Shown here: positions 3 to 11,340 of the stretch, one piece after another | How positions within the stretch are numbered: the first letter of the stretch is position 1 | How the letters are laid out: each line of letters opens with the position of its first letter | Program-made: the position numbers and the translations under genes | Notes under the pieces: generated by a model | What the model was told of the DNA's origin: nothing | The model's input: only the letters and a program-made list of their open reading frames with translations | Database searches by the model: none | Origin: a phage | DNA: 32,908 nucleotides | Direction: 5' to 3' (one strand) | Assembly: GCA_021421665.1 (NCBI GenBank) | Contig: GCA_021421665.1_4698.1

Positions 3-137
3 TGTAAGCCTCTTGCAATAAAAGGTGCAGGTATGTCTGCTAACTCCCAATTGCAACTTTTTGGCAATTTCACAGAAGCGCAATTCCGCAATAAACATGA
101 AGTTATTGGTTCTTTTATGGTGAAACATGCAGAATAA
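3..137 (+). CDS. 3' end of an upstream gene (5'-partial), product unknown
   Basis: Frame open from the window edge to TAA at 135-137 (...GSFMVKHAE*); co-directional with the rest of the genome. Product not identifiable from 44 residues. Confidence 0.4.
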   Translation, partial: CKPLAIKGAGMSANSQLQLFGNFTEAQFRNKHEVIGSFMVKHAE

Positions 138-324
138 ACACAGTCTTAAGATGTTTGATGGTCATGAAGACCTGCAAGCACAAATCACTAACCAAGCCTT
201 CCTGTTTGCACAGTTAACTATGGCTGAAGCAAAGAAGAATAGTCTCACTCGTGAACAGATTATCAAGGAAGGTAGCCGTGGTGCTACTCGTCGTATCAAG
301 AACCACAGAAGTGGTGCTCGCTAG
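127..324 (+). CDS. hypothetical protein (65 aa)
   Basis: ORF-track ORF followed at 338-366 by a hairpin plus T-tract; no clear Shine-Dalgarno, and it overlaps the upstream ORF end by 11 nt. Confidence 0.35.
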   Translation: MQNKHSLKMFDGHEDLQAQITNQAFLFAQLTMAEAKKNSLTREQIIKEGSRGATRRIKNHRSGAR

Positions 325-337
325 TCGATAAGTCAAG

Positions 338-366
338 GGTTGTCTCACACCTGAGACAGCCTTTTA
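338..366 (+). terminator. hairpin (ggttgtctca / tgagacagcc, loop CACC) followed by TTTTA; terminator-like
   Basis: 10-bp stem with one G-U pair, seen directly; T-rich tract follows immediately. Member of a three-copy GTCTCAC...GTGAGAC hairpin family (also 5661 and 22195). Confidence 0.5.
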
Positions 367-388
367 TCATATTGATTGGAGGTGCATT

Positions 389-496
389 ATGCCACGTGAT
401 TATGATTCTGATTGGGACTACTATGACTCAATGAATCCAAAACCTGAACATTCAGATGATTATTATTGGGTGGAGGAAATGTATGAAAACTATTAA
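389..496 (+). CDS. small acidic hypothetical protein (35 aa)
   Basis: ATG at 389 preceded by GGAGGT; sequence MPRDYDSDWDYYDSMNPKPEHSDDYYWVEEMYENY; below the 60-aa ORF-track cutoff. Confidence 0.3.
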   Translation: MPRDYDSDWDYYDSMNPKPEHSDDYYWVEEMYENY

Positions 497-695
497 ACTA
501 AGCAAAGTTTGCTCTTGCGGTAAAGGCTATCGTAGTCGTATCGATGGTAAGTGTGAAAACTGTAGAAGCCAGAAGGATAAGGATGTGCTCTACTTATTCT
601 GGCGTGATGTATCAATACTTGATGTGAGTCCTGATTCTTTAAAAGGTAAAGTTCTAAGATTAAACACTTTTGGAGCAATCTATGAAATCAATTGA
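483..695 (+). CDS. small Cys-rich protein (70 aa), possible zinc ribbon
   Basis: ATG at 483 with GGAGGA 5 nt upstream; CSCGK...CENC four-Cys arrangement; the ORF-track start at 456 lacks an SD. Confidence 0.45.
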   Translation: MKTIKLSKVCSCGKGYRSRIDGKCENCRSQKDKDVLYLFWRDVSILDVSPDSLKGKVLRLNTFGAIYEIN

Positions 696-3228
696 TTGGA
701 AGAAGGAAGCAGAAGGTCGTATCCTCGTCATGGACGCCGAAAGTAAAGGTCTTCTTGATGCTATCCGCTATGGTCATCGTGAAGATGTACACATCATTTG
801 CTGCATGGATTTGCTTACTACCGAGGAGTTCTTATTCTTCGACCCGTATGAGATGCGTGACCCTGAAGCAAGGGAGCGCCTGAAGGAATGGGAAGGGCAT
901 CAAGATGGTGACTTGGTTGATGGTGTTAACTTCCTGAAGCACTGTGAAGCTATCGTGTCACAGAACTTCCTAGGATATGACGGTCTTCTCTTTGAGAAAG
1001 CATTCCCTGCTATCTGGAAAGGTTTTAACTATACCGAGAGGCGAGGCAAGGGCAGACTCCGCGCTGACCTGTGTCCTGTGCGAGTCATGGACACGCTGGT
1101 GATGAGTCGCCTGTTAAACCCCGATAGGCGCCTCCCTCCGCAAGCATACGCCAAAGGTATGGGTAACGTCGCCCCTCACTCAATTGAGGCGCACGGCATC
1201 CGTATAGGCCGCTATAAACCGGAGAACAAGGACTGGTCTAAGCTGACCGACCACATGGTTCACCGTGTACGTGAGGACGTGGCGATTGGTCGTGACTTTT
1301 TCCTGTGGCTGTATAACGGGGAATGGGTGGAGCACAAACGCCGTGGCGTGAATAAACGTACTGGCCTAGGCATTGAGACAGCCTTCCACATGGAATCCAT
1401 TGTGGCGCTGGAGATGAGCCGTCAGGCCGAGCGCGGATTCCGTCTGGACATCGACAAGGCGTTAGCGCGATGCGAAGAACTGGACGCTAAGGTTGATGAG
1501 ACAGTCGCAGCGTTCCGTCCGCACATGCCTATGCGTATCAAGTCTAAACCTTTTAAACCGGAAGAAAAGAATGAAGTATGCCAACGCGCAAATGAGTATG
1601 GAGCTAGCAACAATATACCTACTATCCTGGACCCCTCTCACTTTCTTCACACAGAGAGACGAGGAGATCGCAAGACAGTATGGAGTGTCACTACTAAGTC
1701 TGGTGATTGGTCAGCTAGTGTCAAGAAAGACTTTCCTCACCTTAGAGGAAACCGTAATGACACGCCAAGCATCAAGTGGATTGGTGCTTACTCGCCTGTT
1801 ACTTTCGAAGAAATTCCCTTGGGTAACAGGGATACAGTTAAGCAAGTGCTCTATGATTATGGATGGAAGGGTGTTGAATTTAACGATACCGAGCAAGCGC
1901 ATCTGGATGAGCACGGAGTGTTACCCAAACCTTGGAGTGGAAAGATAAATGAGAAGTCCCTTACTTTATGGCAGGAAAGAGCCGCACGTGAAGGTAAAAC
2001 AGTCCCTGATTGGTGCTTGGGTATCGCTGCATGGTACATACTCGTATCCCGTCGTGGTCAGATACTCAACCGTGGTGACGTTGAAGCCTTCAACGAGAAA
2101 GGAACGTGGCCCTCGCAGGCTGGTGTACGAAAGTGTCGCGGCCTTGTACCTGTAGCTTTTAACAAGGAGTTAGGGATCAATGCGCAGCAATACTACGAGA
2201 GGTATGGGTGTTGGCCTACGTCTGACAAGGATGACGGAGAGTGGCGTGTGCCAGCTATTGCTATTAGCATTGGCACTTCTACGTTCCGTATGCGTCATCG
2301 TAACGTGGTTAATATTCCTGCCCGTGGCTTGTATCCTTTACGTGATTTATTCATAGCAGGTGAAGGTAAGTTAATCCTAGGCTGTGATGGTGCAGGTCTT
2401 GAACTACGTGTACTATCTCACTTCATGAATGACCCTGAGTACCAAGATATTGTACTGCACGGTGACATACATACGCATAACCAGATGAAGGCTGGTCTTC
2501 CTAAGCGGGATATGGCGAAGACATTTATATATGCTTTCCTTTACGGATCTGGTATAGCAAACCTTGCAGCAGTATGTGGTGTTACTGAGGAAGAAATGAA
2601 GGAAGTTGTGGCAAGATTCGAGATTGAACTACCATCTCTTGCACGTCTTCGTGAGAATGTTATTGCACAAGGCAACAAGTTTGGCTACCTACAAGCACCT
2701 GATGGACACTGGGGTCGCATCCGTATGTCTGGTGGTGAACTTAAAGAGCACACTATGCTTAACGTATTGCTACAGATGACTGGTTCTTTGTGTATGAAAT
2801 ATGCATTGGTTAAGGCATTTGCAGTGATGCGCAAGGAAGGTGTGGCCTTAGATGGTATGGGAAACCCTTGTGGTGTAGCTAACGTGCACGATGAAATCCA
2901 GATGGAAGTACCTGAAGACGAGGTATTATATCTTAACTACGACTTACCTTTCACCCTAGAAGGGTTTGAAACAGAGAAGGCTGCTGTGAAGGCAGTGTTC
3001 GATGCAGAGGAGAAACGTGTTCATGTTGATTCCGAAGGGCGCATGTGGTCGGCTGCTAACTTGGTTGAAGTGGATGCTACTGCTGGTGTGTTGCGTTGTC
3101 AGCGTCGCTACCACAGGGCTGGTCATATTATCGCTGACGCAATGACTTGGGCTGGTCAGTATCTGAAGATGCGTTGCCCGATGGCAGGCGAATATAAGAT
3201 TGGTGCAAGTTGGAAGGAGACACACTAA
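682..3228 (+). CDS. DNA polymerase, family A (T7 gp5-like), with N-terminal 3'-5' exonuclease region
   Basis: Pol I motifs read in translation: DGAGLELRVLSHFMND (motif A), RDMAKTFIYAFLYGSG (motif B), VHDEIQMEV (motif C); resembles recalled T7 gp5 blocks GLELRCLAHFM and AKTFIYGFLYGAG. Start taken at ATG 682 (GGAG upstream) rather than the TTG at 670. Confidence 0.95.
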   Translation: MKSIDWKKEAEGRILVMDAESKGLLDAIRYGHREDVHIICCMDLLTTEEFLFFDPYEMRDPEARERLKEWEGHQDGDLVDGVNFLKHCEAIVSQNFLGYDGLLFEKAFPAIWKGFNYTERRGKGRLRADLCPVRVMDTLVMSRLLNPDRRLPPQAYAKGMGNVAPHSIEAHGIRIGRYKPENKDWSKLTDHMVHRVREDVAIGRDFFLWLYNGEWVEHKRRGVNKRTGLGIETAFHMESIVALEMSRQAERGFRLDIDKALARCEELDAKVDETVAAFRPHMPMRIKSKPFKPEEKNEVCQRANEYGASNNIPTILDPSHFLHTERRGDRKTVWSVTTKSGDWSASVKKDFPHLRGNRNDTPSIKWIGAYSPVTFEEIPLGNRDTVKQVLYDYGWKGVEFNDTEQAHLDEHGVLPKPWSGKINEKSLTLWQERAAREGKTVPDWCLGIAAWYILVSRRGQILNRGDVEAFNEKGTWPSQAGVRKCRGLVPVAFNKELGINAQQYYERYGCWPTSDKDDGEWRVPAIAISIGTSTFRMRHRNVVNIPARGLYPLRDLFIAGEGKLILGCDGAGLELRVLSHFMNDPEYQDIVLHGDIHTHNQMKAGLPKRDMAKTFIYAFLYGSGIANLAAVCGVTEEEMKEVVARFEIELPSLARLRENVIAQGNKFGYLQAPDGHWGRIRMSGGELKEHTMLNVLLQMTGSLCMKYALVKAFAVMRKEGVALDGMGNPCGVANVHDEIQMEVPEDEVLYLNYDLPFTLEGFETEKAAVKAVFDAEEKRVHVDSEGRMWSAANLVEVDATAGVLRCQRRYHRAGHIIADAMTWAGQYLKMRCPMAGEYKIGASWKETH

Positions 3229-3326
3229 TGAAAACTGCTTTTATCATTCTTGGTATTATATTATTTATGGTAGTGTTCTGGGCTTTCTCTGGCATTGACC
3301 CAGATTGTGATGGTAACTACGACTGA
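3228..3326 (+). CDS. small hydrophobic protein (32 aa), putative membrane peptide
   Basis: ATG overlaps the polymerase stop (taATGa); MKTAFIILGIILFMVVFWAFSGIDPDCDGNYD has one predicted transmembrane stretch; below ORF-track cutoff. Confidence 0.3.
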   Translation: MKTAFIILGIILFMVVFWAFSGIDPDCDGNYD

Positions 3327-3385
3327 GTTATACTCAAGGTCACTTACTAGTGGCCTTTATGAATAACTTAAATGAGGCAAATACT

Positions 3386-3646
3386 ATGATTAAATACACT
3401 GCTTATCAATTAACTAAAGACCGTAAGATAGGTGTTGAGGTTAAAGCTTGGAATGAAGGACACATCACTGTAGTTATAGAGTGTCTCCAAGACAATGGTG
3501 TGATGCTAAGAAGCTACCGTTGCTTCACCAAATTACGCTGCAAGGATTTAACTGAAGAATTATTCTTACGTTGTATTGTTGAATCTATTAAACTTATTAG
3601 ACCCTACGCCAAGCAAGTTGTAGGTAATGTCACAGTAGTACATTGA
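3386..3646 (+). CDS. hypothetical protein (86 aa)
   Basis: ORF-track ORF 3350..3646; ATG at 3386 is preceded by GAGG at a suitable distance; in-frame alternatives at 3350 (GTG) and 3359 (ATG). Confidence 0.5.
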   Translation: MIKYTAYQLTKDRKIGVEVKAWNEGHITVVIECLQDNGVMLRSYRCFTKLRCKDLTEELFLRCIVESIKLIRPYAKQVVGNVTVVH

Positions 3647-3668
3647 TTTACTGGACACTATAGAAGGA
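3646..3668 (+). promoter_or_regulatory. SP6-type phage RNAP promoter ATTTACTGGACACTATAGAAGGA
   Basis: Matches SP6 promoter consensus ATTTAGGTGACACTATAGAAGAG at 19 of 23 positions; predicted +1 G at 3663; intergenic. Confidence 0.8.
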
Positions 3669-3732
3669 ATGCCTAGGTAATCTAGGTTTATAAGGTAGTA
3701 TAGGTAGTTAAGTAAATATAGGAGGTATAAAT

Positions 3733-4059
3733 ATGTCTATGGTGACTACTCTGGTATTCGTGGCTCAATACTTTCGTGGCTTATCTAATAAGTTTAAGCA
3801 GAAGGCTATCTTTGCAATTCAAGAGCGTATCAATAAAATTGAAGAAGAACAAGTAGATGTAGAAGAACATCGTAGTTCTCAAATGATTGACTGCCACAAC
3901 CGCTACTATGCATCTCGTGATGACCTTAATGCGCGTCAAGTCAAAGAGGTTGAAGAGATGCTGGCCGCCACCAGCAAGAGCGTGACAAACTGGAAGCTGA
4001 CTTCGAAGAGAACAAGGCACCCATCGCCCTTGTACATCAAGCCGCATCTGACAGCTTGA
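3733..4059 (+). CDS. hypothetical coiled-coil-like protein; C-terminal part may continue in the -1 frame to 4109
   Basis: AGGAGG SD before ATG 3733. A second frame is open 3954..4109, lacks a start of its own, encodes a coiled-coil-like peptide and ends at the SD of the next gene. Confidence 0.5.
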   Translation: MSMVTTLVFVAQYFRGLSNKFKQKAIFAIQERINKIEEEQVDVEEHRSSQMIDCHNRYYASRDDLNARQVKEVEEMLAATSKSVTNWKLTSKRTRHPSPLYIKPHLTA

Positions 4060-4118
4060 AGAAAGAGATTGTTATGCTGGAGATTGAACTGGACAACCTA
4101 ACTAAGTAAGGAGTTATG

Positions 4119-4415
4119 ATGGAAGAAGTGATTCAAGCTAAACATGTAGGTATCATCTTTCGTGATCTAGAGCAGCGTAAAGTTGCAGGTCATACCCGTT
4201 TGGCTAAAGAAGATGATACAGCAATCGCTACTGTTGAACAAGCAGATGCCTATCGTGGGCCAGAGTTTACTCAAGGTGAAACTTGTCACCAATTGAGCCT
4301 GTCACTTTGTGACACTATGGCTAGTGTGAATGTGCAAGAAGTTGAAGATGGAGACTGTGTTAGCTACGTCTACCCTCTGGACACTGTTGCACGTATTAAA
4401 GTAATTCATAAATAA
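4119..4415 (+). CDS. hypothetical protein (98 aa)
   Basis: AAGGAG at 4108-4113 is 5 nt before ATG 4119 (ATG 4116 is also in frame); stop abuts the next promoter. Confidence 0.55.
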   Translation: MEEVIQAKHVGIIFRDLEQRKVAGHTRLAKEDDTAIATVEQADAYRGPEFTQGETCHQLSLSLCDTMASVNVQEVEDGDCVSYVYPLDTVARIKVIHK

Positions 4416-4436
4416 TTACTGGACACTATAGAACAA
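4414..4436 (+). promoter_or_regulatory. SP6-type phage RNAP promoter AATTACTGGACACTATAGAACAA
   Basis: Core GGACACTATAGAA conserved; predicted +1 G at 4431; intergenic. Confidence 0.75.
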
Positions 4437-4506
4437 TAGGACGTGGGTTTGTCAGAGACAGTAAATCCAAGGTGCTCAGTGAGCGTAAAGCCTAAGCACG
4501 TCCTAT
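4436..4506 (+). promoter_or_regulatory. large stem-loop at the 5' end of the transcript (RNase III-site-like)
   Basis: ataggacgtg (4436-4445) is a perfect 10-bp complement of cacgtcctat (4497-4506), enclosing 51 nt with sub-hairpins; further hairpins at 4531-4547 and 4551-4565; 188-nt untranslated leader before ATG 4625. Confidence 0.4.
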
Positions 4507-4624
4507 GATTGTAAAGTGTTTAACCGCCTTTTGTGCATCTTGCACAACCCGAATCAATCGGGCTTTCTAGTGAGTACATGCTTGTGCTCAGTACAAAGCT
4601 AACTGACAATAGGAGACTAAATAA

Positions 4625-5431
4625 ATGGCACGTGGTGATTTTGATTTTGGTGCTCAGGTTACTAAAGCTGAAGGTAAAGTATTTAAGAACCCTGAAGTTG
4701 GTGATCATGAAGCAGTAATCTCTGGCATCATTCATGTTGGTTCCTTCCAAGATATCTTTAAGAAAGGCAATACCACTGAAGTTAAGAAGCCAGCAAACTT
4801 TGTGCTTGTTAAGATTGTCCTGATGGGTGACGATGACAAGAACGAAGATGACTCTCGCATGGAACAATGGATGGCTGTGCCTCTGAAGTCTGGTGACAAG
4901 GCAACCTTGACTAAATTCCTGAATGCAGTTGACCCTAAAGAGTTGCTAGGTGGCTTCGATGACTTCATCGGCGAATGTCTGACTGCAACTATGGTTGGCT
5001 CTGGAGACAAGAATGACGATGGCTCATTCAAGTATGTCAACTGGAAGGGCTTTGGTGGTATGCCGGATAAGCTGAAGAAACTTGTCATTGCTCAGGTTGA
5101 AGAGGAAGGTCTGTCTATGACAGGTCACATTACCTTCGACAAGCTGACCAAAGAAATCCTTGATGATATTCCAGCTAACTTGGTGCGTCAATATTTCCTG
5201 AATGAGACACCTCGTGGTAAGAACCTGTCTGTTGCTGGCTCTCACGTAGAAGCAATCATTAAAGCTGCTCGTGAAGAAGACCCAGAGTGGAAGAAGTCTA
5301 AGAAGAAAGAGGATGAAGATGCTACCCCAGCTAATCGTAAGCCTCTTGATACTGGTGAGACTGTTCCTCAGGAAGTACCGGAAGCAGACAATGCGCCTGC
5401 ACCGGAAATGGATGAGGACGCGGAATACTAA
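4625..5431 (+). CDS. hypothetical protein (268 aa) with acidic C-terminal tail; candidate ssDNA-binding protein
   Basis: AGGAGA SD; C-terminus ...APEMDEDAEY is acidic and ends in an aromatic residue, as in T7 gp2.5 (...DGDF). Functional call is inference only. Confidence 0.55.
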   Translation: MARGDFDFGAQVTKAEGKVFKNPEVGDHEAVISGIIHVGSFQDIFKKGNTTEVKKPANFVLVKIVLMGDDDKNEDDSRMEQWMAVPLKSGDKATLTKFLNAVDPKELLGGFDDFIGECLTATMVGSGDKNDDGSFKYVNWKGFGGMPDKLKKLVIAQVEEEGLSMTGHITFDKLTKEILDDIPANLVRQYFLNETPRGKNLSVAGSHVEAIIKAAREEDPEWKKSKKKEDEDATPANRKPLDTGETVPQEVPEADNAPAPEMDEDAEY

Positions 5432-5440
5432 GGAGGTGGG

Positions 5441-5659
5441 ATGAAAGTACAAATCGTAACCCTGCATTGCAAGAAGGGCATTACAACGCTTGGCGGTAAC
5501 ACTTTTCACTCCTTCTCTGAGGGTGAGACATACGCCGACCTGCACTACATCTGGCGCGATGGACAGCACGTGGTGAACTATAGTGACCCCACTACGGGGA
5601 AACGCCACGGCGTATCGCTTCCGGCGCATGACATTGCGCAGGTGAACACAGTTTTATAA
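5441..5659 (+). CDS. hypothetical protein (72 aa)
   Basis: GGAGGTGGG SD immediately upstream of ATG 5441; tightly packed after the preceding gene. Confidence 0.55.
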   Translation: MKVQIVTLHCKKGITTLGGNTFHSFSEGETYADLHYIWRDGQHVVNYSDPTTGKRHGVSLPAHDIAQVNTVL

Positions 5660-5660
5660 A

Positions 5661-5676
5661 GTCTCACACGTGAGAC
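5661..5676 (+). other. hairpin gtctca-CACG-tgagac (family member)
   Basis: 6-bp stem with tetraloop seen directly; no T-tract follows; lies between a gene end and the promoter at 5692. Confidence 0.3.
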
Positions 5677-5691
5677 AAATAGGTGTCCGGT

Positions 5692-5714
5692 ATTTACTGG
5701 ACACTATAGAAGAG
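5692..5714 (+). promoter_or_regulatory. SP6-type phage RNAP promoter ATTTACTGGACACTATAGAAGAG
   Basis: 21 of 23 match to the canonical SP6 promoter; predicted +1 G at 5709. Confidence 0.8.
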
Positions 5715-5764
5715 AAGAATTTTAATCGGCGATAATGCCACAACCAACAAAAGGAGAATTTAAT

Positions 5765-6130
5765 ATGTTCAAGATTGAAACTATCGTAAACCGTGTTGTT
5801 AAAGGTGCTGCTCTGGTATCCGTTGAGTCTTTCATTATCGTCGATGAAGCCGACCAACTGGTAGCTGGTACTAAGGCTTATGATACTCGTGAAGAAGCTC
5901 AGGCTAAAATTGACAGCATGGGTAACTTCGCTGCTGGTCTGGAGTTTGCTCGTGCTTGTTTCCCTGAGCAGGCTGACAAAGCTCAGATTGGTAAGGCTAA
6001 CATCGTAGCTGAGTATCTGGATTGGATTGCTGCTGGTAAACCCGTGAAAGAAGCTAAGGCTGAAGAAGCTGAAGTAGTAGAAGACGTAGCTGCACCGGAA
6101 GTACCGGTAAGCGAAGAAGAAGAGTTTTAA
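5765..6130 (+). CDS. hypothetical protein (121 aa) with acidic C-terminal tail ending in Phe
   Basis: AAGGAG SD 8 nt before ATG 5765 (ORF-track start 5735 lacks an SD); C-terminus ...PEVPVSEEEEF; own promoter upstream and terminator-like hairpin downstream. Confidence 0.6.
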   Translation: MFKIETIVNRVVKGAALVSVESFIIVDEADQLVAGTKAYDTREEAQAKIDSMGNFAAGLEFARACFPEQADKAQIGKANIVAEYLDWIAAGKPVKEAKAEEAEVVEDVAAPEVPVSEEEEF

Positions 6131-6136
6131 TTGATG

Positions 6137-6168
6137 CCCTGTCTGCCTTAGTGTAGGCAGGGTCTTTT
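6137..6168 (+). terminator. terminator-like hairpin (ccctgtctgc / gtaggcaggg) followed by TCTTTT
   Basis: 10-bp stem with two G-U pairs, then a T-tract; same sequence family as the hairpin at 15316. Confidence 0.5.
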
Positions 6169-6194
6169 GCGTAATAGTTATTGGAGAATGAATT

Positions 6195-6500
6195 ATGCCG
6201 ACTATTGGATCTCGTTTAGTAGCAGACTATGTTTATGGTTGTGACTTAAAGCTGGGACAAGATTATTTTAAAGTAATCGTCTTGCTGGATGGAGAAGTGT
6301 TTCACACTAAAACATTCACCCTACCTGAGTTATTTGATTTAGGTTATTGGGGTTATACTTATCAGGCCATAGCAGACAAGGTGCTACTCAGTGTATTAGA
6401 GGAGTGGCCTACATGCGACCAAACTTCGACTTCGGAGCTACAGTATCGGAAGACAATAATCTCATCCTGTGGCCGACTGAAGGTAATCGAATCGCTTTAG
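6195..6500 (+). CDS. hypothetical protein (101 aa)
   Basis: GGAGA SD before ATG 6195; its 3' end overlaps the exonuclease start by 88 nt, so its true extent is uncertain. Confidence 0.4.
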   Translation: MPTIGSRLVADYVYGCDLKLGQDYFKVIVLLDGEVFHTKTFTLPELFDLGYWGYTYQAIADKVLLSVLEEWPTCDQTSTSELQYRKTIISSCGRLKVIESL

Positions 6501-7441
6501 TAGATGCTGATATGTTGCCTTATATCGTAGGGTATACAATCAGTGACATGACTTATGTACGAGCCACAACTCGTGTTAAGTCAGGGCAAGTCCCATCAAT
6601 CAAAGATACACCTGAGTGTAAGCAAGCGTGTGACCGTGTGAACTCCCTGCTTAACTCTTGGGTGTATGCAGCAGAGTGTGATGCTGCTAAGTTATTCATG
6701 ACGAAATCCGAAGCTAACTTCCGTGTTCGCCTAGCATTCACCAAGCCTTATAAGGGTCAACGTAAGACCGAGAAGCCTCCATTCTTCTATGAATTGCGAG
6801 AGCATCTCTTAGAGGTTCACGGTGCAATCTTGGCAGATGGAGAAGAGGCTGATGACCTTATGAGCATCGCACAATGGGACAGCCACCGACGCTTCCAGCA
6901 AGATACAGGTAACGAGTTTCCTATCGGTAGTCCAGAGCATAAAACATTCTCTGATACTTGCATCGTTTCCTTAGATAAGGATTTGATGATTGTTCCCGGT
7001 TGGCATCTTCAGCCGGGTCAAGAGAAGAAGTGGGTAGAGCCTATGGGTTGGCTTGAGCTACGCCGTAAGGCTAATGGTCAAGTCAAAGACCTAAAAGGTG
7101 CTGGCCTCATGTTCCATTATGCACAGATGATTATTGGTGATGATATCGATAACTACTCTGGCATACCGGGTCGTGGCGCTAAGTATGCCTATGATCTTCT
7201 CAAAGGATGTAAGACAGAGAAAGATTTGTACATGGCAGTTCTTGGTGCTTACAAGGCTAAGTTTGGACATGGACAAGTTAAGATTAAGAATTACCGAGGT
7301 GGTTATCGTATCGGCAAAGCCTTTGACTTGATGCTTGAATGTGGTCGCCTAGCTCACATGGCAAGATTCAAAGGTGATATATGGCGAGCCGATAAGAACC
7401 CAATCTTGTGGGGAGATGATGCGGAATGGTTAGCAAATTAA
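6413..7441 (+). CDS. 5'-3' exonuclease (T7 gp6-like, FEN family)
   Basis: GAGGAG SD before ATG 6413; blocks IALVDADMLPY, SLDKDLMIVP and IIGDDIDNYSGIPGRG resemble recalled T7 gp6 blocks ILVMDGDWL, SCDKDFKTIP and IKGDITDGYSGIAGWG. Confidence 0.8.
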   Translation: MRPNFDFGATVSEDNNLILWPTEGNRIALVDADMLPYIVGYTISDMTYVRATTRVKSGQVPSIKDTPECKQACDRVNSLLNSWVYAAECDAAKLFMTKSEANFRVRLAFTKPYKGQRKTEKPPFFYELREHLLEVHGAILADGEEADDLMSIAQWDSHRRFQQDTGNEFPIGSPEHKTFSDTCIVSLDKDLMIVPGWHLQPGQEKKWVEPMGWLELRRKANGQVKDLKGAGLMFHYAQMIIGDDIDNYSGIPGRGAKYAYDLLKGCKTEKDLYMAVLGAYKAKFGHGQVKIKNYRGGYRIGKAFDLMLECGRLAHMARFKGDIWRADKNPILWGDDAEWLAN

Positions 7442-7836
7442 AAGCATCGGAGGTGGCAGCTTATAAGAAGGAATTGCTAGATAAGCAAGGATGGAAGTGC
7501 CCTCTGTGCGGTGGCAGTCTAAAGGCTGTCGCCCCTAAAAACCGTGTACTTGATCATGATCATGAGACAGGCTTCTGCCGCGCTGTTGTATGCCGAGGCT
7601 GCAATGGTGCAGAAGGCCATATTAAGGGTGTTATCTCTGGTTATGGTAAGGCAGGTAACAGCCGTTATTTCCAGCTTCAATGGCTAGAGCGGCTATACGA
7701 ATACTGGAAGTTACATAGTACGCCTCAGACTGATAAGTTATATCACAAACATCAAACGGAGGCAGAGAAGCGCGAGGCTAAGAACCGTAAGGCACGCCTT
7801 GCTTATGCAAGAAAGAAGGAGGTTAAAGTTGGGTAA
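7426..7836 (+). CDS. endonuclease VII-like Holliday-junction resolvase
   Basis: CPLCGG...LDHDHETGFCRAVVCRGCNGAEG matches the T4 gp49 signature C-x2-C...DHDHE...G-x-C-x2-CN-x-AEG. Confidence 0.8.
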   Translation: MVSKLKASEVAAYKKELLDKQGWKCPLCGGSLKAVAPKNRVLDHDHETGFCRAVVCRGCNGAEGHIKGVISGYGKAGNSRYFQLQWLERLYEYWKLHSTPQTDKLYHKHQTEAEKREAKNRKARLAYARKKEVKVG

Positions 7837-8836
7837 GCTTCGCAGCTTGTACAAAGACTCCGAGGTACTTGATGCAATCGAGCAAGCTACCGACGAGAAA
7901 GGTAATGTTAATTATAAGGAGATGGCACGGGTGCTATCGTGTCATCCTGTGGGTAAGAAGATTACCCGCCAGTTGGCTCGATACTGGCACGGTCAATTCA
8001 AGAAGACCAAGAAGAATGGTGGTTATTACCAGACCCTTCTGCAAGAAGATAAGCGTATCAAAGAAGAGCGTAGGCTCAGGACTCCTGACCGCTACGAGGA
8101 TTTGGCTATTGTACCACTGCCTGACTCGCCTCATCGAAGTGTACTGGTAATCCCTGATACCCATGCGCCTTATGAGCATCCAGATACTTTAGAGTTCCTT
8201 GCAGCCGTGGCAGCACGTTATCGCCCAGACACAGTGGTACATCTTGGGGATGAGGCAGACAAACATGCCTTGTCATTCCACGACTCTGACCCCAATCTGG
8301 ATAGTGCTGGAGTGGAGTTAGAGAAGGCTCGTGTATTCATGCACAAATTGCACAAGATGTTTCCTGTGATGCGCCTGTGTCATTCTAACCACGGCTCTAT
8401 GCACTTCCGCAAGGCAAGCGCTAAGGGCATCCCTGTGCAATATCTACGTACCTATCGTGAGGTCTTCTTCCCGAATGGAGGTGGCGATCAGTGGGATTGG
8501 CAGCATACGCATGTACTTGAGTTGCCGAATGGCGAACAGGTAGCGTTCAAGCATCAACCTGCTGGCGTTGTCCTAGCAGATGCAGCGCATGAGCGTATGA
8601 ATCTTGTGTGTGGTCATCTGCATGGTAAGATGTCTGTGGAGTATGCACGTAATACTCATGAGCAGTATTGGGCTGTGCAGGGTGGCTGTCTGATTGATGA
8701 GTCGTCTCGTGCATTTGCCTATGGTCGTGAGTCTAAGTACAAGCCAGCATTAGGCTGTGTGGTTATTCTGGAGGGTGTACCACACATTGTCCCGATGCAG
8801 ACCAATAGCGACAATCGCTGGGTTGGTAAGATTTAG
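7829..8836 (+). CDS. calcineurin-like metallophosphoesterase
   Basis: Motifs VIPDTHAP (D-x-H), HLGDEAD (GD), SNHG (GNH-like) and CGHLHG; start placed at TTG 7829 after AGGAGG, with in-frame ATG 7805 as alternative. Confidence 0.7.
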   Translation: MGKLRSLYKDSEVLDAIEQATDEKGNVNYKEMARVLSCHPVGKKITRQLARYWHGQFKKTKKNGGYYQTLLQEDKRIKEERRLRTPDRYEDLAIVPLPDSPHRSVLVIPDTHAPYEHPDTLEFLAAVAARYRPDTVVHLGDEADKHALSFHDSDPNLDSAGVELEKARVFMHKLHKMFPVMRLCHSNHGSMHFRKASAKGIPVQYLRTYREVFFPNGGGDQWDWQHTHVLELPNGEQVAFKHQPAGVVLADAAHERMNLVCGHLHGKMSVEYARNTHEQYWAVQGGCLIDESSRAFAYGRESKYKPALGCVVILEGVPHIVPMQTNSDNRWVGKI

Positions 8837-8853
8837 TTGACACTATAGAACAA
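8831..8853 (+). promoter_or_regulatory. SP6-type phage RNAP promoter ATTTAGTTGACACTATAGAACAA
   Basis: Overlaps the stop codon of the preceding gene; predicted +1 G at 8848; a hairpin (aagggta...taccctt) follows within the first 30 nt of the transcript. Confidence 0.75.
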
Positions 8854-8903
8854 AGGGTAGGTGCTAGCTTACCCTTGATTGTATAGTGAATGGAGGAATT
8901 AAT

Positions 8904-9443
8904 ATGTCACACTATGTATGTAAGAAATGCCATAATCGCTATGATAATTGCACCTGTGATTATAGTAAAGGTGAAAGAATTAAAGCAGGTGATTATGTTA
9001 TACGACGTGCTGGCTGCCGCACTTTAGAGTGGAATAAGGTATGTAACCAATTAGGAAAGAAAGGGGATGCAACATTCAAAGTTACAAAGGATGAGCCTGT
9101 CAGCAGCGCTATTATGCTTGAAGGTATCGAAAATAGAGAATGGTATGCACCTTATTTCGAGCGAGTAGCTGCTCCCCAAGTTGTATCTGAGTCCAACATG
9201 TTGGAAAACAATATGGTTACTCAGCCTAAGCACTACGAGTTCTTCGAAGGTGTAGAAGCAATCACTATCATTGCCCGTAGTATGACCGAGAAGCAATTCG
9301 CTGGCTATTGCATGGGTAACGCCTTGAAGTACCGCCTGCGTGCAGGTAAGAAGTTCAACACTGAAGAAGACCTGAAGAAAGCAGATTACTACAAAGAGTT
9401 ATTCCAGAAGCATCGTCACGAATGTATTGATGAGGACATTTGA
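8904..9443 (+). CDS. T7 gp1.7-like protein (nucleotide kinase family) with N-terminal Cys cluster
   Basis: C-terminal block ARSMTEKQFAGYCMGNALKYRLRAGKK...KADYYKELFQKH resembles recalled T7 gp1.7 (ARSMTVEQFKGYCFGNILKYRLRAGKK...KADFYKELFEKH); N-terminal CKKCHNRYDNCTC; GGAGG SD. Confidence 0.6.
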   Translation: MSHYVCKKCHNRYDNCTCDYSKGERIKAGDYVIRRAGCRTLEWNKVCNQLGKKGDATFKVTKDEPVSSAIMLEGIENREWYAPYFERVAAPQVVSESNMLENNMVTQPKHYEFFEGVEAITIIARSMTEKQFAGYCMGNALKYRLRAGKKFNTEEDLKKADYYKELFQKHRHECIDEDI

Positions 9444-9444
9444 T

Positions 9445-9618
9445 ATGGAAGGTAAATTGTATCGAGGTTATTTCGGAAATCTATATAAGGTTAGCAGTAG
9501 AGGCTTTGTGTTGGCTTCCAATGATGAAGGTGCAACGTGGTATTTAAGTGCTTACGGTTCTAACTTAGCATACTTTAAAGCTGCAATATACAAAGGTGTT
9601 ATGAAGGAGGTTGGATGA
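9445..9618 (+). CDS. hypothetical protein (57 aa)
   Basis: ATG 9445 just after the upstream stop, GAGGA 8 nt upstream; stop overlaps the ligase start. Confidence 0.4.
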   Translation: MEGKLYRGYFGNLYKVSSRGFVLASNDEGATWYLSAYGSNLAYFKAAIYKGVMKEVG

Positions 9619-10562
9619 ACATCTTCCAATTCTTAGGTCTTCCAGAAGACCACCGCAATCACCCCTTCATGCTGGTGAAGCATCGCGGTGAAGTACCTGA
9701 GAAGAAACTTACTTTTCCATGTTATGCACAGGTGAAACGTGATGGAATATTTAGTGCTGTTGTGGTACGTAATGATGGTGCTGTTGCCATCTTTGGTCGT
9801 ACTGGTAAGAAGCTCGCAAATGTTGAAGACTTGGAAAAGTTATTTAGTGTATTTCCTGTCGGGTTGTATCTTGGTGAGTTGCAATCTATGGCTGTTGATA
9901 TATATCTTGAAGCTCTATCAGGGGTAGTAAATCCCAATCGCACTGAGCCACTCGATTTCATAGGCCAGCAGATTAAAGACAACCTGTATATCGACTTCTT
10001 CGATATGTTAACTATTAAGGCATTCCATGATGGATTCACTGATGTTTCTTATCTCAAACGTTACGATGCTTTACATCGTCGCATCGGCGCTCATCTTAGC
10101 GGGAACAACGCTATCCTCCCTATTACTCCTTGCCATAATGAGCGAGAAGTTGAAGCGTTTGCACAAGAGCAAATAGATGCAGGCCGAGAAGGTGCTGTGT
10201 TTAAACTGGACTGCGACTATGAAGCAGGTCACAAAGGTTATCGTCAGACTAAAGAAGTCCGTAAGGTAACTTATGACCTTACTTGTATTGGCTTTGAAGA
10301 AGGTAAAGGTAAGTACAAGGGTAAGGTAGCTAACCTCATTTTCAAATGGAAAGGAGGCAAGACAATCAAAGCTATGTTAGGTAAAGGGTGGACTCATGCA
10401 GATGCAGAACAGATGTTCCACGATATTAAACATGGCGGACGATTGAATGTCATTGGTAAAATCTTTGAAGTAAAAGGTCTTCAGGATTCAAGCAAGGGCA
10501 ACATTCGTCTGCCCAAAGCGGGAGAATTAAGACATGACAAAGATGAACCAGATTTCTTTTGA
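9615..10562 (+). CDS. ATP-dependent DNA ligase (T7 gp1.3-like)
   Basis: Adenylation motif KxDG present (AQVKRDGIF); AAGGAGG SD before ATG 9615. Confidence 0.88.
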   Translation: MNIFQFLGLPEDHRNHPFMLVKHRGEVPEKKLTFPCYAQVKRDGIFSAVVVRNDGAVAIFGRTGKKLANVEDLEKLFSVFPVGLYLGELQSMAVDIYLEALSGVVNPNRTEPLDFIGQQIKDNLYIDFFDMLTIKAFHDGFTDVSYLKRYDALHRRIGAHLSGNNAILPITPCHNEREVEAFAQEQIDAGREGAVFKLDCDYEAGHKGYRQTKEVRKVTYDLTCIGFEEGKGKYKGKVANLIFKWKGGKTIKAMLGKGWTHADAEQMFHDIKHGGRLNVIGKIFEVKGLQDSSKGNIRLPKAGELRHDKDEPDFF

Positions 10563-10749
10563 TAACATGAAGGCAACTCGTGCAGTTGAGGTGGCAGAAG
10601 CTATCTTCGAAACCTTATCCTGTGGCATGGAAGTGCCATATAACTTACTGGCTGATGCAGAAGAATTAGGTCTTTCTGTAGAAGCTATCCAAGAGAAAGT
10701 AGAGGAACTTTATGGTACAGATGAAGAAGAAACCGACGATTTCATTTGA
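10534..10749 (+). CDS. small acidic hypothetical protein (71 aa)
   Basis: ORF-track ORF with GGGAGA 8 nt upstream; acidic C-terminus ...DEEETDDFI; overlaps ligase end by 29 nt. Confidence 0.45.
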   Translation: MTKMNQISFDNMKATRAVEVAEAIFETLSCGMEVPYNLLADAEELGLSVEAIQEKVEELYGTDEEETDDFI

Positions 10750-10753
10750 AGGG

Positions 10754-10882
10754 ATGGAGATGCTTAAGAGGGTTCTCACTCCTTCCTCCCCTAAGCTAAC
10801 TAAGGCTCATGAAGAATTAATAGTTGATGAGGTGAAGCGTTACATCATGGAGTGTGTCAAGGCACAACTGGTGGTTCAATGA
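10754..10882 (+). CDS. small hypothetical protein (42 aa)
   Basis: Stop overlaps the start of the next gene in an ATGA arrangement (10879-10882); below ORF-track cutoff; weak SD. Confidence 0.3.
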   Translation: MEMLKRVLTPSSPKLTKAHEELIVDEVKRYIMECVKAQLVVQ

Positions 10883-11340
10883 TACGTCCCGCTTCCTTCC
10901 TAGATATTCCTGAGATTATAAACCTTGGGAATAAGTATGTGGAAGAGGAAGTCAAGGTAGTGGCTCATCACTCAGCCTCATGGAATGCAGAACAAAGCGC
11001 ACACAACCTTTGTGCATCTCTAAGTAGAGAAGATTTATTCCTGTGGGTGGCTGTTGATGAAGGGCAGATTGTAGGGTTCCTATGGGCTGGCTATCATGAG
11101 TTAGCCCCTTGGACACCTGTAAGAGTTGCCTCTGATATTCTCTTCTACATTGTACCAGAGAGGCGAGGGACACTGCTTGGTATGCGCCTTATCAAAGCAT
11201 TAAAGCAATGGGCCAGTGAAAGCAAGTGTGCCGAGGTTCGCCTGTCTATCGCCTCTGGTATTAATGAAGAACGTGTCGGACGTATGTATAAGCGACTTGG
11301 CTTTGAACCGTTTGGCACTGTGTATAACCTGAAGTTCTAA
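10879..11340 (+). CDS. GNAT-family N-acetyltransferase
   Basis: GNAT-like core QIVGFLWAGYHEL...ERRGTLLGMRLIKALKQWA...RMYKRLGFEPFG; start at ATG 10879 (ATGA-coupled) preferred over ORF-track start 10852. Confidence 0.65.
   Translation: MIRPASFLDIPEIINLGNKYVEEEVKVVAHHSASWNAEQSAHNLCASLSREDLFLWVAVDEGQIVGFLWAGYHELAPWTPVRVASDILFYIVPERRGTLLGMRLIKALKQWASESKCAEVRLSIASGINEERVGRMYKRLGFEPFGTVYNLKF

Follow-up and report, generated by a model that had tools for sequence, protein, structure and literature searches.

The gene 22 metallophosphoesterase of a K1E-like phage belongs to the PHROG 221 clade of Bxb1 gp47 and carries a putative DNA-binding N-terminal domain

To which subfamily does the calcineurin-like phosphoesterase in the replication module of this phage belong, and on which substrate would it act? 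The window analysed here, a stretch of 32,908 nucleotides (contig GCA_021421665.1_4698.1), is as a whole a Vectrevirus (K1E-like) genome. A sequence-only reading had placed a metallophosphoesterase (MPE) with D-x-H, GD, GNH-like and GHLHG motifs at 7829-8836, between a resolvase and a nucleotide kinase, and had proposed an Mre11-like nuclease, a polynucleotide phosphatase or a protein phosphatase as its role. The open reading frame and its motifs confirmed the gene, and both neighbours were found as described. The gene and its surroundings are as follows.

7426-7836: endonuclease VII gene (the resolvase), upstream of the MPE gene
7816..7823, plus strand: Shine-Dalgarno sequence AAGGAGGT, about 5-6 nt before the TTG, read from the sequence
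7829..7836, plus strand: 8-nt overlap of the MPE start with the stop region of the endonuclease VII gene, from the ORF coordinates
7829..8836, plus strand: complete MPE coding sequence, 335 aa plus stop, from the ORF list, ribosome-binding site, homologue N-termini and K1E annotation
8886-9443: DUF3310 / gp1.7-like 'nucleotide kinase' gene, downstream of the MPE gene
9615-10562: ATP-dependent DNA ligase gene, two genes downstream of the MPE gene

The enclosing ORF spans 7799..8836 on the plus strand. The TTG codon at 7829 is supported as the start because it is preceded by the ribosome-binding site AAGGAGGT, situated within the 3' end of the endonuclease VII gene, and because the N-terminus read from it (MGKLRSLY...) aligns with those of 34 homologues. 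The two genes overlap by 8 nt, which suggests that their translation is coupled; the overlap is identical in K1E, where endonuclease VII overlaps gene 22, and the corresponding overlap in Aeromonas phage R1 is 4 nt. The gene is real, and it is an ordinary, already annotated K1E/SP6-like gene 22 'metallo-phosphoesterase'. Its product is the orthologue of K1E gene 22 (YP_424999; orthologues in Vectrevirus, Zindervirus and related genera), which has the same length of 335 aa and occupies the same slot between endonuclease VII and the gp1.7-like kinase. Protein identity was 99.1% to Vectrevirus NIC06P3 and 93% to SP6, with several deposited phages at 97-99%. There is no substantive difference from these orthologues, and the window represents another isolate. 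The label 'metallo-phosphoesterase' is given in many GenBank records; the sequence-only reading had overlooked this existing annotation in K1E. Literature searches on gp22-type Autographiviridae proteins, including those of SP6, K1E and KP34, returned only annotations and genome announcements. The expectation that T7 has no counterpart held: no match below E 0.5 appeared when T7 was searched in six frames with three profiles of the family.

The protein is composed of two domains, an organisation recognised here. Alignment A1 comprises 35 sequences with identities down to 48%, and alignment A3 combines the gp22-type and gp47-type proteins. The domains and motifs, all on the plus strand, are as follows.

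7829..8083, plus strand: N-terminal domain, about residues 1-85, a three-helix Myb/homeodomain-like module plus a basic helix
8129..8833, plus strand: metallophosphoesterase catalytic domain, about residues 101-335
8156..8164, plus strand: motif I, D110-T-H112 (IPDTHAPY), invariant in A1
8246..8251, plus strand: motif II, G140-D141 (LGDEAD), invariant in A1
8387..8392, plus strand: motif III, N187-H188 (SNHG), invariant in A1 and A3
8552..8554, plus strand: candidate motif IV, H242 (FKHQ), invariant in A1 and A4, located where strand 237-241 ends
8612..8623, plus strand: motif V, G262-H263-L-H265 (CGHLHG), invariant in A1

All five signature motifs of calcineurin-like MPEs are intact and invariant in the 35 homologues, and none of the metal-binding motifs was lost in this alignment. 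In motif I, D110 is encoded at 8156-8158 and H112 at 8162-8164. Residues E142, D144 and H146 following motif II are likewise invariant in A1, and the aspartate of motif II and both histidines of motif V are unchanged even across A3. In motif III a serine replaces the glycine of the GNH(D/E) signature, and H242 probably represents motif IV. The catalytic domain shows the beta-alpha-beta-alpha-beta sandwich fold of the MPE superfamily. The Pfam family PF00149 was matched marginally above its gathering cut-off (22.1 against 21.5 bits), and 29 of the 35 homologues matched it at E<=1. Relatives possess inteins placed exactly after motif I or motif II, including right after GDE, which argues for the functional importance of the active site. 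Homologues of gp47 also bear inteins (PMC5050341), and insertions in the MPE domain are found in both the gp22-type and the gp47-type family.

The N-terminal module resembles Myb/homeodomain folds and is predicted from the structural model to be a DNA-binding domain; this separate HTH-like domain had gone unnoticed in the sequence-only reading. Among 60 family representatives with an extended N-terminus, every non-MPE Pfam match was a DNA-binding module (HTH_23 in 11, along with HTH_psq, HTH_SB, HTH_28, HTH_3, HTH_24 and HNH_repeat), showing that the clade acquires such domains repeatedly.

Subfamily placement was analyzed by fold and profile-profile comparison, since no solved MPE was found by sequence: searches of the PDB with the single protein, a 35-sequence profile and a 96-sequence gp22 + gp47 profile returned no MPE at E<=10. 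The PHROG 221 profile gave a significant full-length match to the window protein (E 1.2e-104), and its parts also matched separately, with E 5.6e-83 for the catalytic domain and 4.6e-15 for the N-terminal domain. Bxb1 gp47 matched the same profile at E 4.5e-116. PHROG 221, which contains about 3000 clusters at 50% identity, unites the window protein with Bxb1 gp47, D29 gp54 and A10ZJ24 Gp48. In hhalign, the gp22-type catalytic domain was aligned to the gp47 family with 99.0% probability (E 3.7e-18, 216 columns), and to the single sequences of gp47 and D29 gp54 with 97.7% and 98.1%. Controls were much weaker (53% for lambda NinI, 16% for E. coli SbcD, 1% for D29 gp66). HMM scores were 41-61 bits for the gp22/gp47 family comparison against 3-8 bits for the controls, and the gp47-family HMM, run on the six-frame translated window, selected precisely the MPE ORF (E 9e-7). 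At the level of sequence, the homology to gp47/gp54 is specific and goes beyond generic MPE similarity. The gene itself was already known; its membership in PHROG 221 and the Bxb1 gp47-like clade is new here. The comparisons place the protein outside Mre11/SbcD, the lambda-type protein phosphatases and PdeM. The placement in PHROG 221 is a modest gain, which ties the Autographiviridae MPE to the sole experimentally studied members of the clade, Bxb1 gp47 and A10ZJ24 Gp48. These nearest studied relatives had been missed in the earlier reading.

The homology to Bxb1 gp47, L5-D29 gp54 and A10ZJ24 Gp48 covers the entire MPE domain. The gp47-type and gp22-type proteins have in common P-Y/F after motif I, a GDxxD...S segment, and the GCLID / GxLMD and AF.Y.K segments. 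The gp47-type genes too lie among polymerase, primase, endonuclease VII and exonuclease genes, and the nearest solved folds of both types are DP1 and Mre11. Identity between the two types is only about 20%, however, and the gp47-type proteins are 255 aa long without the N-terminal HTH-like domain; Bxb1 gp47 possesses Q where the gp22-type proteins have the motif I histidine. The hosts also differ, being Actinobacteria for the gp47 type and Enterobacteria for the gp22 type. Bxb1 gp47 is a recombination directionality factor that needs a serine integrase, whereas K1E-like phages are virulent and use none. Even among gp47 homologues, not all act as directionality factors.

The Mre11-like nuclease of the earlier reading survives in spirit and fails as family membership. 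Mre11/SbcD proteins possess a capping domain and a Rad50/SbcC partner, whereas the window protein has neither and ends with the MPE core; the hhalign match to E. coli SbcD extended over 43 columns. Contig L015 encodes SbcD and SbcC alongside a PHROG 221 MPE, and this coexistence of a relative with true SbcCD in one viral genome also disfavours such an identity.

Genomic context was compared across phages. The gene is situated in a replication / nucleotide-metabolism module, and the order DNA polymerase ... exonuclease - endonuclease VII - MPE is kept in Molineuxvirinae, Colwellvirinae and Melnykvirinae. The MPE gene adjoins the DNA polymerase gene in Drulisvirus, lies near MazG and RNR in a Nitrincola phage, and adjoins dNMP kinase, primase-helicase and PolA genes in an uncultured virus. 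Its conservation extends over at least four subfamilies of Autographiviridae and to a crAss-like phage. A single-protein scan for related loci gave 4 loci only.

We favour, with confidence evenly balanced, the reading that the protein is a Mn2+/divalent-metal-dependent DNA phosphodiesterase (nuclease) that works beside the exonuclease and endonuclease VII of the phage. The ORF encodes a middle-gene (DNA-metabolism) protein in which a basic linker joins the N-terminal module to a putatively binuclear MPE domain. According to this reading, the MPE domain would hydrolyse DNA as an exo- and/or endonuclease, and the N-terminal domain would tether the enzyme to DNA or to a partner bound to DNA. Co-expressed with the T7-gp6-like exonuclease and endonuclease VII, it would act jointly with both in host DNA breakdown and/or trimming of replication/recombination intermediates, and the released dNMPs may supply the adjacent gp1.7-like nucleotide kinase.

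A DNA-directed activity is favoured because relatives repeatedly carry N-terminal HTH DNA-binding domains, because A10ZJ24 Gp48, a relative within the clade, degrades DNA, and because the replication-module context is conserved. Gp48 is a phosphodiesterase on bis-pNPP; in vitro it breaks down linear, plasmid and genomic DNA, and in vivo the DNA of the host, and its motif-I mutant is dead (PMC12287305). Nuclease/phosphodiesterase activity and the requirement in phage DNA replication have been reported for mycobacteriophage members only (PMC12287305, PMC11795197). Several points count against the DNA phosphodiesterase reading. Identity to the gp47 family is low, and its role is seen differently in the two studies that examined this family. 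Bxb1 gp47, with the glutamine in place of the motif I histidine, was reported to be without phosphoesterase activity and to show weak nuclease activity only, for which contamination was not excluded. It does not bind DNA according to Ghosh et al., and it is without the HTH-like domain. Moreover, the phage encodes two other nucleases, an exonuclease and endonuclease VII, and host DNA breakdown in T7 proceeds without any MPE. The proposal gives a testable hypothesis, namely an Mn-dependent nuclease directed at DNA and serving replication or the breakdown of host DNA; the E. coli and Salmonella phages are genetically tractable, and the K1E/SP6-type proteins could help to reconcile the conflicting mycobacteriophage reports.

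A bolder and more doubtful version is that an HTH-tethered nuclease may have, in T7-supergroup phages of Gram-negative hosts, the function by which gp47 is indispensable to Bxb1 DNA replication, or may shred host DNA like Gp48 against inducible defences. In either role, PHROG 221 would be a widespread, overlooked core replication or counter-defence nuclease common to podophages, crAss-like phages and actinophages.

Among the alternatives, a small-molecule phosphodiesterase of the YfcE/MJ0936 type survives best, though we consider it unlikely. MJ0936 and YfcE are, with the PolD DP1 exonuclease, the nearest folds to the MPE domain, and such an enzyme would act on a compound derived from nucleotides, for instance cyclic or linear (oligo)nucleotides, dinucleoside polyphosphates or ADP-ribose derivatives, serving nucleotide salvage or the destruction of a host immune signalling molecule. 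The N-terminal fusions of the family are, however, exclusively DNA-binding modules, the closest relatives that have been studied work on DNA or in its replication, and D29 gp66 is unrelated beyond the superfamily. We also know of no anti-signalling phage enzyme that is an MPE of the PHROG 221 clade, which counts against this explanation.

An editing or accessory 3'-5' exonuclease docking on the phage replisome, as DP1 does in archaeal PolD, has been proposed earlier for Bxb1 gp47 and is improbable for the window protein. DP1 (PDB 5ihe) is an Mre11-like proofreading exonuclease, and it shares 13% identity over the MPE core alone (188 residues); PDB searches with the single protein and with profiles gave no sequence-level relation between the two. 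DP1 possesses an OB domain and binds DP2 and PCNA, whereas the model of the window protein contains no OB fold or polymerase-docking domain. Proofreading is already supplied, since the family-A polymerase of the window has an N-terminal ExoI-like MDAES motif and Pfam assigns a 3'-5' exonuclease domain to the Bxb1 polymerase. For gp47, a virtual pulldown gave no partner.

Slightly less probable still is an end-healing enzyme, a 3'-phosphatase or 2',3'-cyclic phosphodiesterase serving the nearby DNA ligase in the manner of the MPE domain of bacterial Pnkp. The polynucleotide phosphatase suggested earlier persists here as a minor possibility. The ligase gene two genes downstream is in its favour, as is Aeromonas phage R1, where a gene for a HAD PNKP-type 3'-phosphatase overlaps that of the MPE and is followed by a weak P-loop protein. 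A weak NCBIfam match to the ligase-associated PdeM (TIGR04123, E 7e-4) points the same way, but PdeM itself was rejected at 19 bits against a cut-off of 150, the match covering 33 residues around motif II. A healing set of MPE, kinase and ligase was also considered and rejected: the 'polynucleotide kinase' neighbours in Drulisvirus and Ahphunavirus are HAD PNKP 3'-phosphatase domains, which weakens the idea as they are not kinases.

A lambda NinI-like Ser/Thr (or Tyr) protein phosphatase that targets phosphoproteins of the host or the phage is very improbable. The label 'protein phosphatase 2a-like' in some GenBank records, the superfamily fold and binuclear metal centre in common with PPP phosphatases, and the hhalign match to NinI over the first 74 columns speak for it. 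Nevertheless, the GDxHG, GDxVDRG and GNHE signature motifs of PPP phosphatases are missing, similarity in structure and profile is low, and the protein is not of the lambda type. Least probable of all is a mainly non-catalytic scaffold or regulator, comparable to gp47 as directionality factor or to the inactive MPE B-subunits of eukaryotic polymerases, because the metal-ligand motifs are all invariant in the orthologues and are the targets of inteins, and the part of K1E that was inspected carries no annotated integrase.

One further element was found at the 3' end of the gene.

8831..8850, plus strand: SP6-type phage RNA polymerase promoter ATTTAGTTGACACTATAGAA, from a pattern scan and the sequence

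By comparison with the SP6 consensus, ATTTAGTTGACACTATAGAA is an SP6-type promoter. It overlaps the TAG stop of the MPE gene and opens the next transcription unit, and it is part of the context, not of the enzyme.

The long open reading frames of the window are all on the + strand and its GC skew is positive almost everywhere, while the minus strand holds short reading frames only, without support. The window extends from the DNA polymerase gene to the tail genes. A pattern scan found eight promoter cores GACACTATAG, which we take to be of SP6 type by comparison with the SP6 consensus; seven are at 3654, 4422, 5700, 14043, 26693, 28801 and 30463, and the eighth is listed below. Over window 7000-10000, identity was 97.6% with Vectrevirus NIC06P3, against about 89-92% with K1E and related phages. 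On these cores and identities, the window is classed by sequence as K1E/K1-5-like Autographiviridae, subfamily Molineuxvirinae.

Plus-strand features around the metallophosphoesterase (MPE) gene
6347-7441, +, gp6-like exonuclease, upstream of the MPE gene
7426-7836, +, endonuclease VII, upstream of the MPE gene
7829-8836, +, MPE gene
8831-8850, +, SP6-type phage promoter ATTTAGTTGACACTATAGAA, overlapping the MPE stop codon (TAG), at the head of the next transcription unit
8886-9443, +, DUF3310/gp1.7-like nucleotide kinase, downstream of the MPE gene
9615-10562, +, ATP-dependent DNA ligase, downstream of the MPE gene

The MPE gene is real. Its open reading frame spans 7799-8836 (+), and the TTG start at 7829, six bases 3' of AAGGAGGT, yields a 335-aa protein, as long as the product of K1E gene 22 (YP_424999, 'metallo-phosphoesterase'); the N-terminus MGK(L/I)R is common to the window protein and its homologues. 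The calcineurin-like motifs named in the sequence-only reading were all found (IPD110TH112APY, LG140D141EAD, SN187H188G and CG262H263LH265G), as was FKH242Q, and far from being lost in a proper alignment, the metal-binding motifs are invariant in 35 sequences with identities down to 48%. The statistics back the assignment strongly: PHROG 221 'metallo-phosphoesterase' matched the protein at E 1.2e-104, and Pfam Metallophos passed its threshold narrowly (22.1 against 21.5 bits). Homologues numbered 2771 in a word-indexed search and 3075 as representatives at 50% clustering. The same reading held that T7 has no counterpart; in agreement, T7 six-frame translation searched with three profiles (K1E gene 22 clade, stand-alone relatives, gp47 family) gave nothing better than E 0.5.

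PDB sequence searches with the single protein, the 35-sequence profile and a broad 96-sequence profile gave no MPE at E<=10. In structural comparison with solved structures, the PolD DP1 proofreading exonuclease (5ihe) ranked top at 13.4, followed by MJ0936 (13.1), YfcE (12.8), polymerase delta B-subunit (3e0j, 6p1h; 11.5-11.9), Vps29 (11.5-11.6), LpxH (11.0), polymerase alpha and epsilon B-subunits (3flo, 5vbn; 10.9-11.0), Mre11/SbcD (about 10.6), PPP protein phosphatases (8.6-9.5) and the C. thermocellum Pnkp phosphatase domain (8.6). The PPP signatures GDxHG, GDxVDRG and GNHE are absent from the protein, and PdeM, the sole notable NCBIfam match, reached 19 bits over 33 residues against a 150-bit cut-off. 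The protein is therefore not a lambda-type phosphatase, PdeM or a member of Mre11/SbcD, the last ranking below DP1, MJ0936 and YfcE. In an uncultured virus (IMGVR_UViG_3300030410_000060, 12-11105), genes for a UvsX-like recombinase, SbcD, SbcC, HNH and a stand-alone PHROG 221 MPE are followed by transglycosylase and, two genes from the MPE, a T4-type dNMP kinase, then primase-helicase and PolA close by; thus the two MPE kinds coexist, this clade occurring alongside a genuine Mre11/Rad50-type nuclease.

By profile, the window protein falls in PHROG 221 together with the mycobacteriophage MPE Bxb1 gp47. With hhalign, the 35-sequence alignment matched the single gp47 sequence at 87.7% (E 3e-6), and the stand-alone gene 22-type profile matched a 120-member gp47 family profile at 99.0% (E 3.7e-18) over 216 columns, the whole domain. 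Controls with the same query profile gave 53% over 74 columns (lambda NinI), 16% over 43 columns (E. coli SbcD) and 1% (D29 gp66, the second cluster-A phosphoesterase). The stand-alone profile HMM scored 54-61 bits on its best gp47-family matches; that of the 35-sequence alignment matched all 120 members, at best about 34 bits. In reverse, the gp47-family HMM, run on the window translated in six frames, hit precisely this reading frame (E 9e-7). Independently, Bxb1 gp47 matched PHROG 221 at E 4.5e-116, so public clustering already unites both proteins. Judged by these profiles the homology is specific, although identity to the Bxb1 gp47/A10ZJ24 Gp48 family is only about 20% and the motif I His is replaced by Q in Bxb1 gp47. 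Phosphodiesterase activity was shown for A10ZJ24 Gp48 on bis-pNPP in Mn-containing buffer; the protein also cuts up DNA of linear, plasmid and genomic form, destroys that of the host in vivo and is inactivated by motif I mutation (PMC12287305). Bxb1 gp47, encoded among replication genes, is the recombination directionality factor of that phage, with homologues also in phages with tyrosine integrases (PMC1470463). Two studies of the gp47 family assign differing roles.

An AF2 model from the 35-sequence alignment (mean pLDDT 84, pTM 0.75) placed the MPE sandwich at residues ~101-335, preceded by a separate helical module (residues 1-85; helices 10-20, 29-37, 47-57 and 71-81) and a basic linker of lower confidence. 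What is shown is that a three-helix module is appended to a binuclear MPE catalytic domain that is intact and belongs to the PHROG 221 clade. Among the best 150 family representatives in an exhaustive search, about half are stand-alone proteins of ~235 aa matching residues ~100-335 only, and 64 others are extended at the N-terminus by at least 45 aa. In 60 more distant extended members, the non-MPE Pfam matches were DNA-binding modules in every case: HTH_23 in 11 (best E 3e-8), and otherwise HTH_psq, HTH_SB, HTH_28, HTH_3, HTH_24, MarR_2 and HNH_repeat. Of the computational evidence, such repeated, independent fusions point most strongly to DNA as substrate or platform. Certain deposited genomes list the N-terminal and MPE domains as proteins of their own, as in the BFVD entries for Escherichia phage K1E (A0A2I4Q1Z7, 104 aa; A0A2I4Q1Y4, 237 aa) and in P0046 (229 aa) of Klebsiella phage IME184. 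Such records could stem from a different choice of start, a frameshift or a true split, and are consistent with two independent modules.

The MPE gene lies together with those for the exonuclease and endonuclease VII, beside the nucleotide kinase gene, bearing out its earlier placement between resolvase and kinase. The endonuclease VII and MPE genes share 8 nt at the MPE start, identically in K1E, and in both the MPE ribosome-binding site sits within the endonuclease VII coding sequence; this stop/start overlap suggests translational coupling of resolvase and MPE. The order exonuclease, endonuclease VII, MPE is kept in K1E (Molineuxvirinae), Pseudomonas phage Achelous (Colwellvirinae) and Aeromonas phage R1 (Melnykvirinae). 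Stop/start overlaps occur in K1E and R1; those of R1, 4 nt each, join endonuclease VII, MPE and HAD phosphatase (L003 4540-6475). Klebsiella phage KpV48 (Slopekvirinae) has DNA polymerase, an HNH gene, then MPE; a Nitrincola phage has it between MazG and ribonucleotide reductase genes; in Bxb1 and D29 the gp47-type gene lies among polymerase, primase, endonuclease VII, RNR and exonuclease genes. The exception is crAss-like Cellulophaga phage phi14:2 (L004 4722-5645), where the MPE, with its own N-terminal extension, lies amid structural and lysis genes. The 'polynucleotide kinase' genes of KpV48 (L002 9992-10486) and R1 (L003 5924-6475) hold the HAD PNKP 3'-phosphatase domain only (PF25109), so this annotation is probably wrong. 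The window kinase has a Cys-rich N-terminal segment CKKCHNRYDNCTC before its DUF3310 (gp1.7/SaV-like) domain.

We lean evenly between accepting and doubting that the protein is a DNA phosphodiesterase that depends on divalent metal and acts jointly with the exonuclease and endonuclease VII. Such an enzyme would degrade the DNA of the host, trim intermediates of replication and recombination, or both. Editing in the manner of DP1 is less likely, because an ExoI-like MDAES motif is present in the window polymerase and a Pfam 3'-5' exonuclease domain in that of Bxb1. In the window polymerase (family A, 852 aa, 670-3228) this motif is near the N-terminus; Pfam covers the polymerase domain only (residues 537-756), and the rest of the long N-terminal region has no match. 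Phosphodiesterase action on small molecules or signalling nucleotides is compatible with the fold but rather unlikely, and end healing as a phosphatase clearly more so. A protein phosphatase is very improbable, and a non-catalytic role slightly more so still.

Dozens of deposited genomes already carry an annotation of the gene, its family is in PHROGs, and the window copy has no unusual feature. Linking it explicitly to gp47 and Gp48, describing its domain architecture and excluding several subfamilies refine the picture of this widespread clade and are no discovery.

Five relatives (P0121, P0131, P0155, P0156 and P0270) carry LAGLIDADG-type inteins exactly after motif I (between DLH and C) or motif II (between GDE and C); one of them, P0121, shares the N-terminal domain of the window protein. 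Homologues of gp47 also have inteins within the MPE domain, and inteins typically occupy positions critical to function in proteins of replication and repair (PMC5050341). A 637-aa Proteus phage version of the intein-bearing MPE is also present in BFVD.
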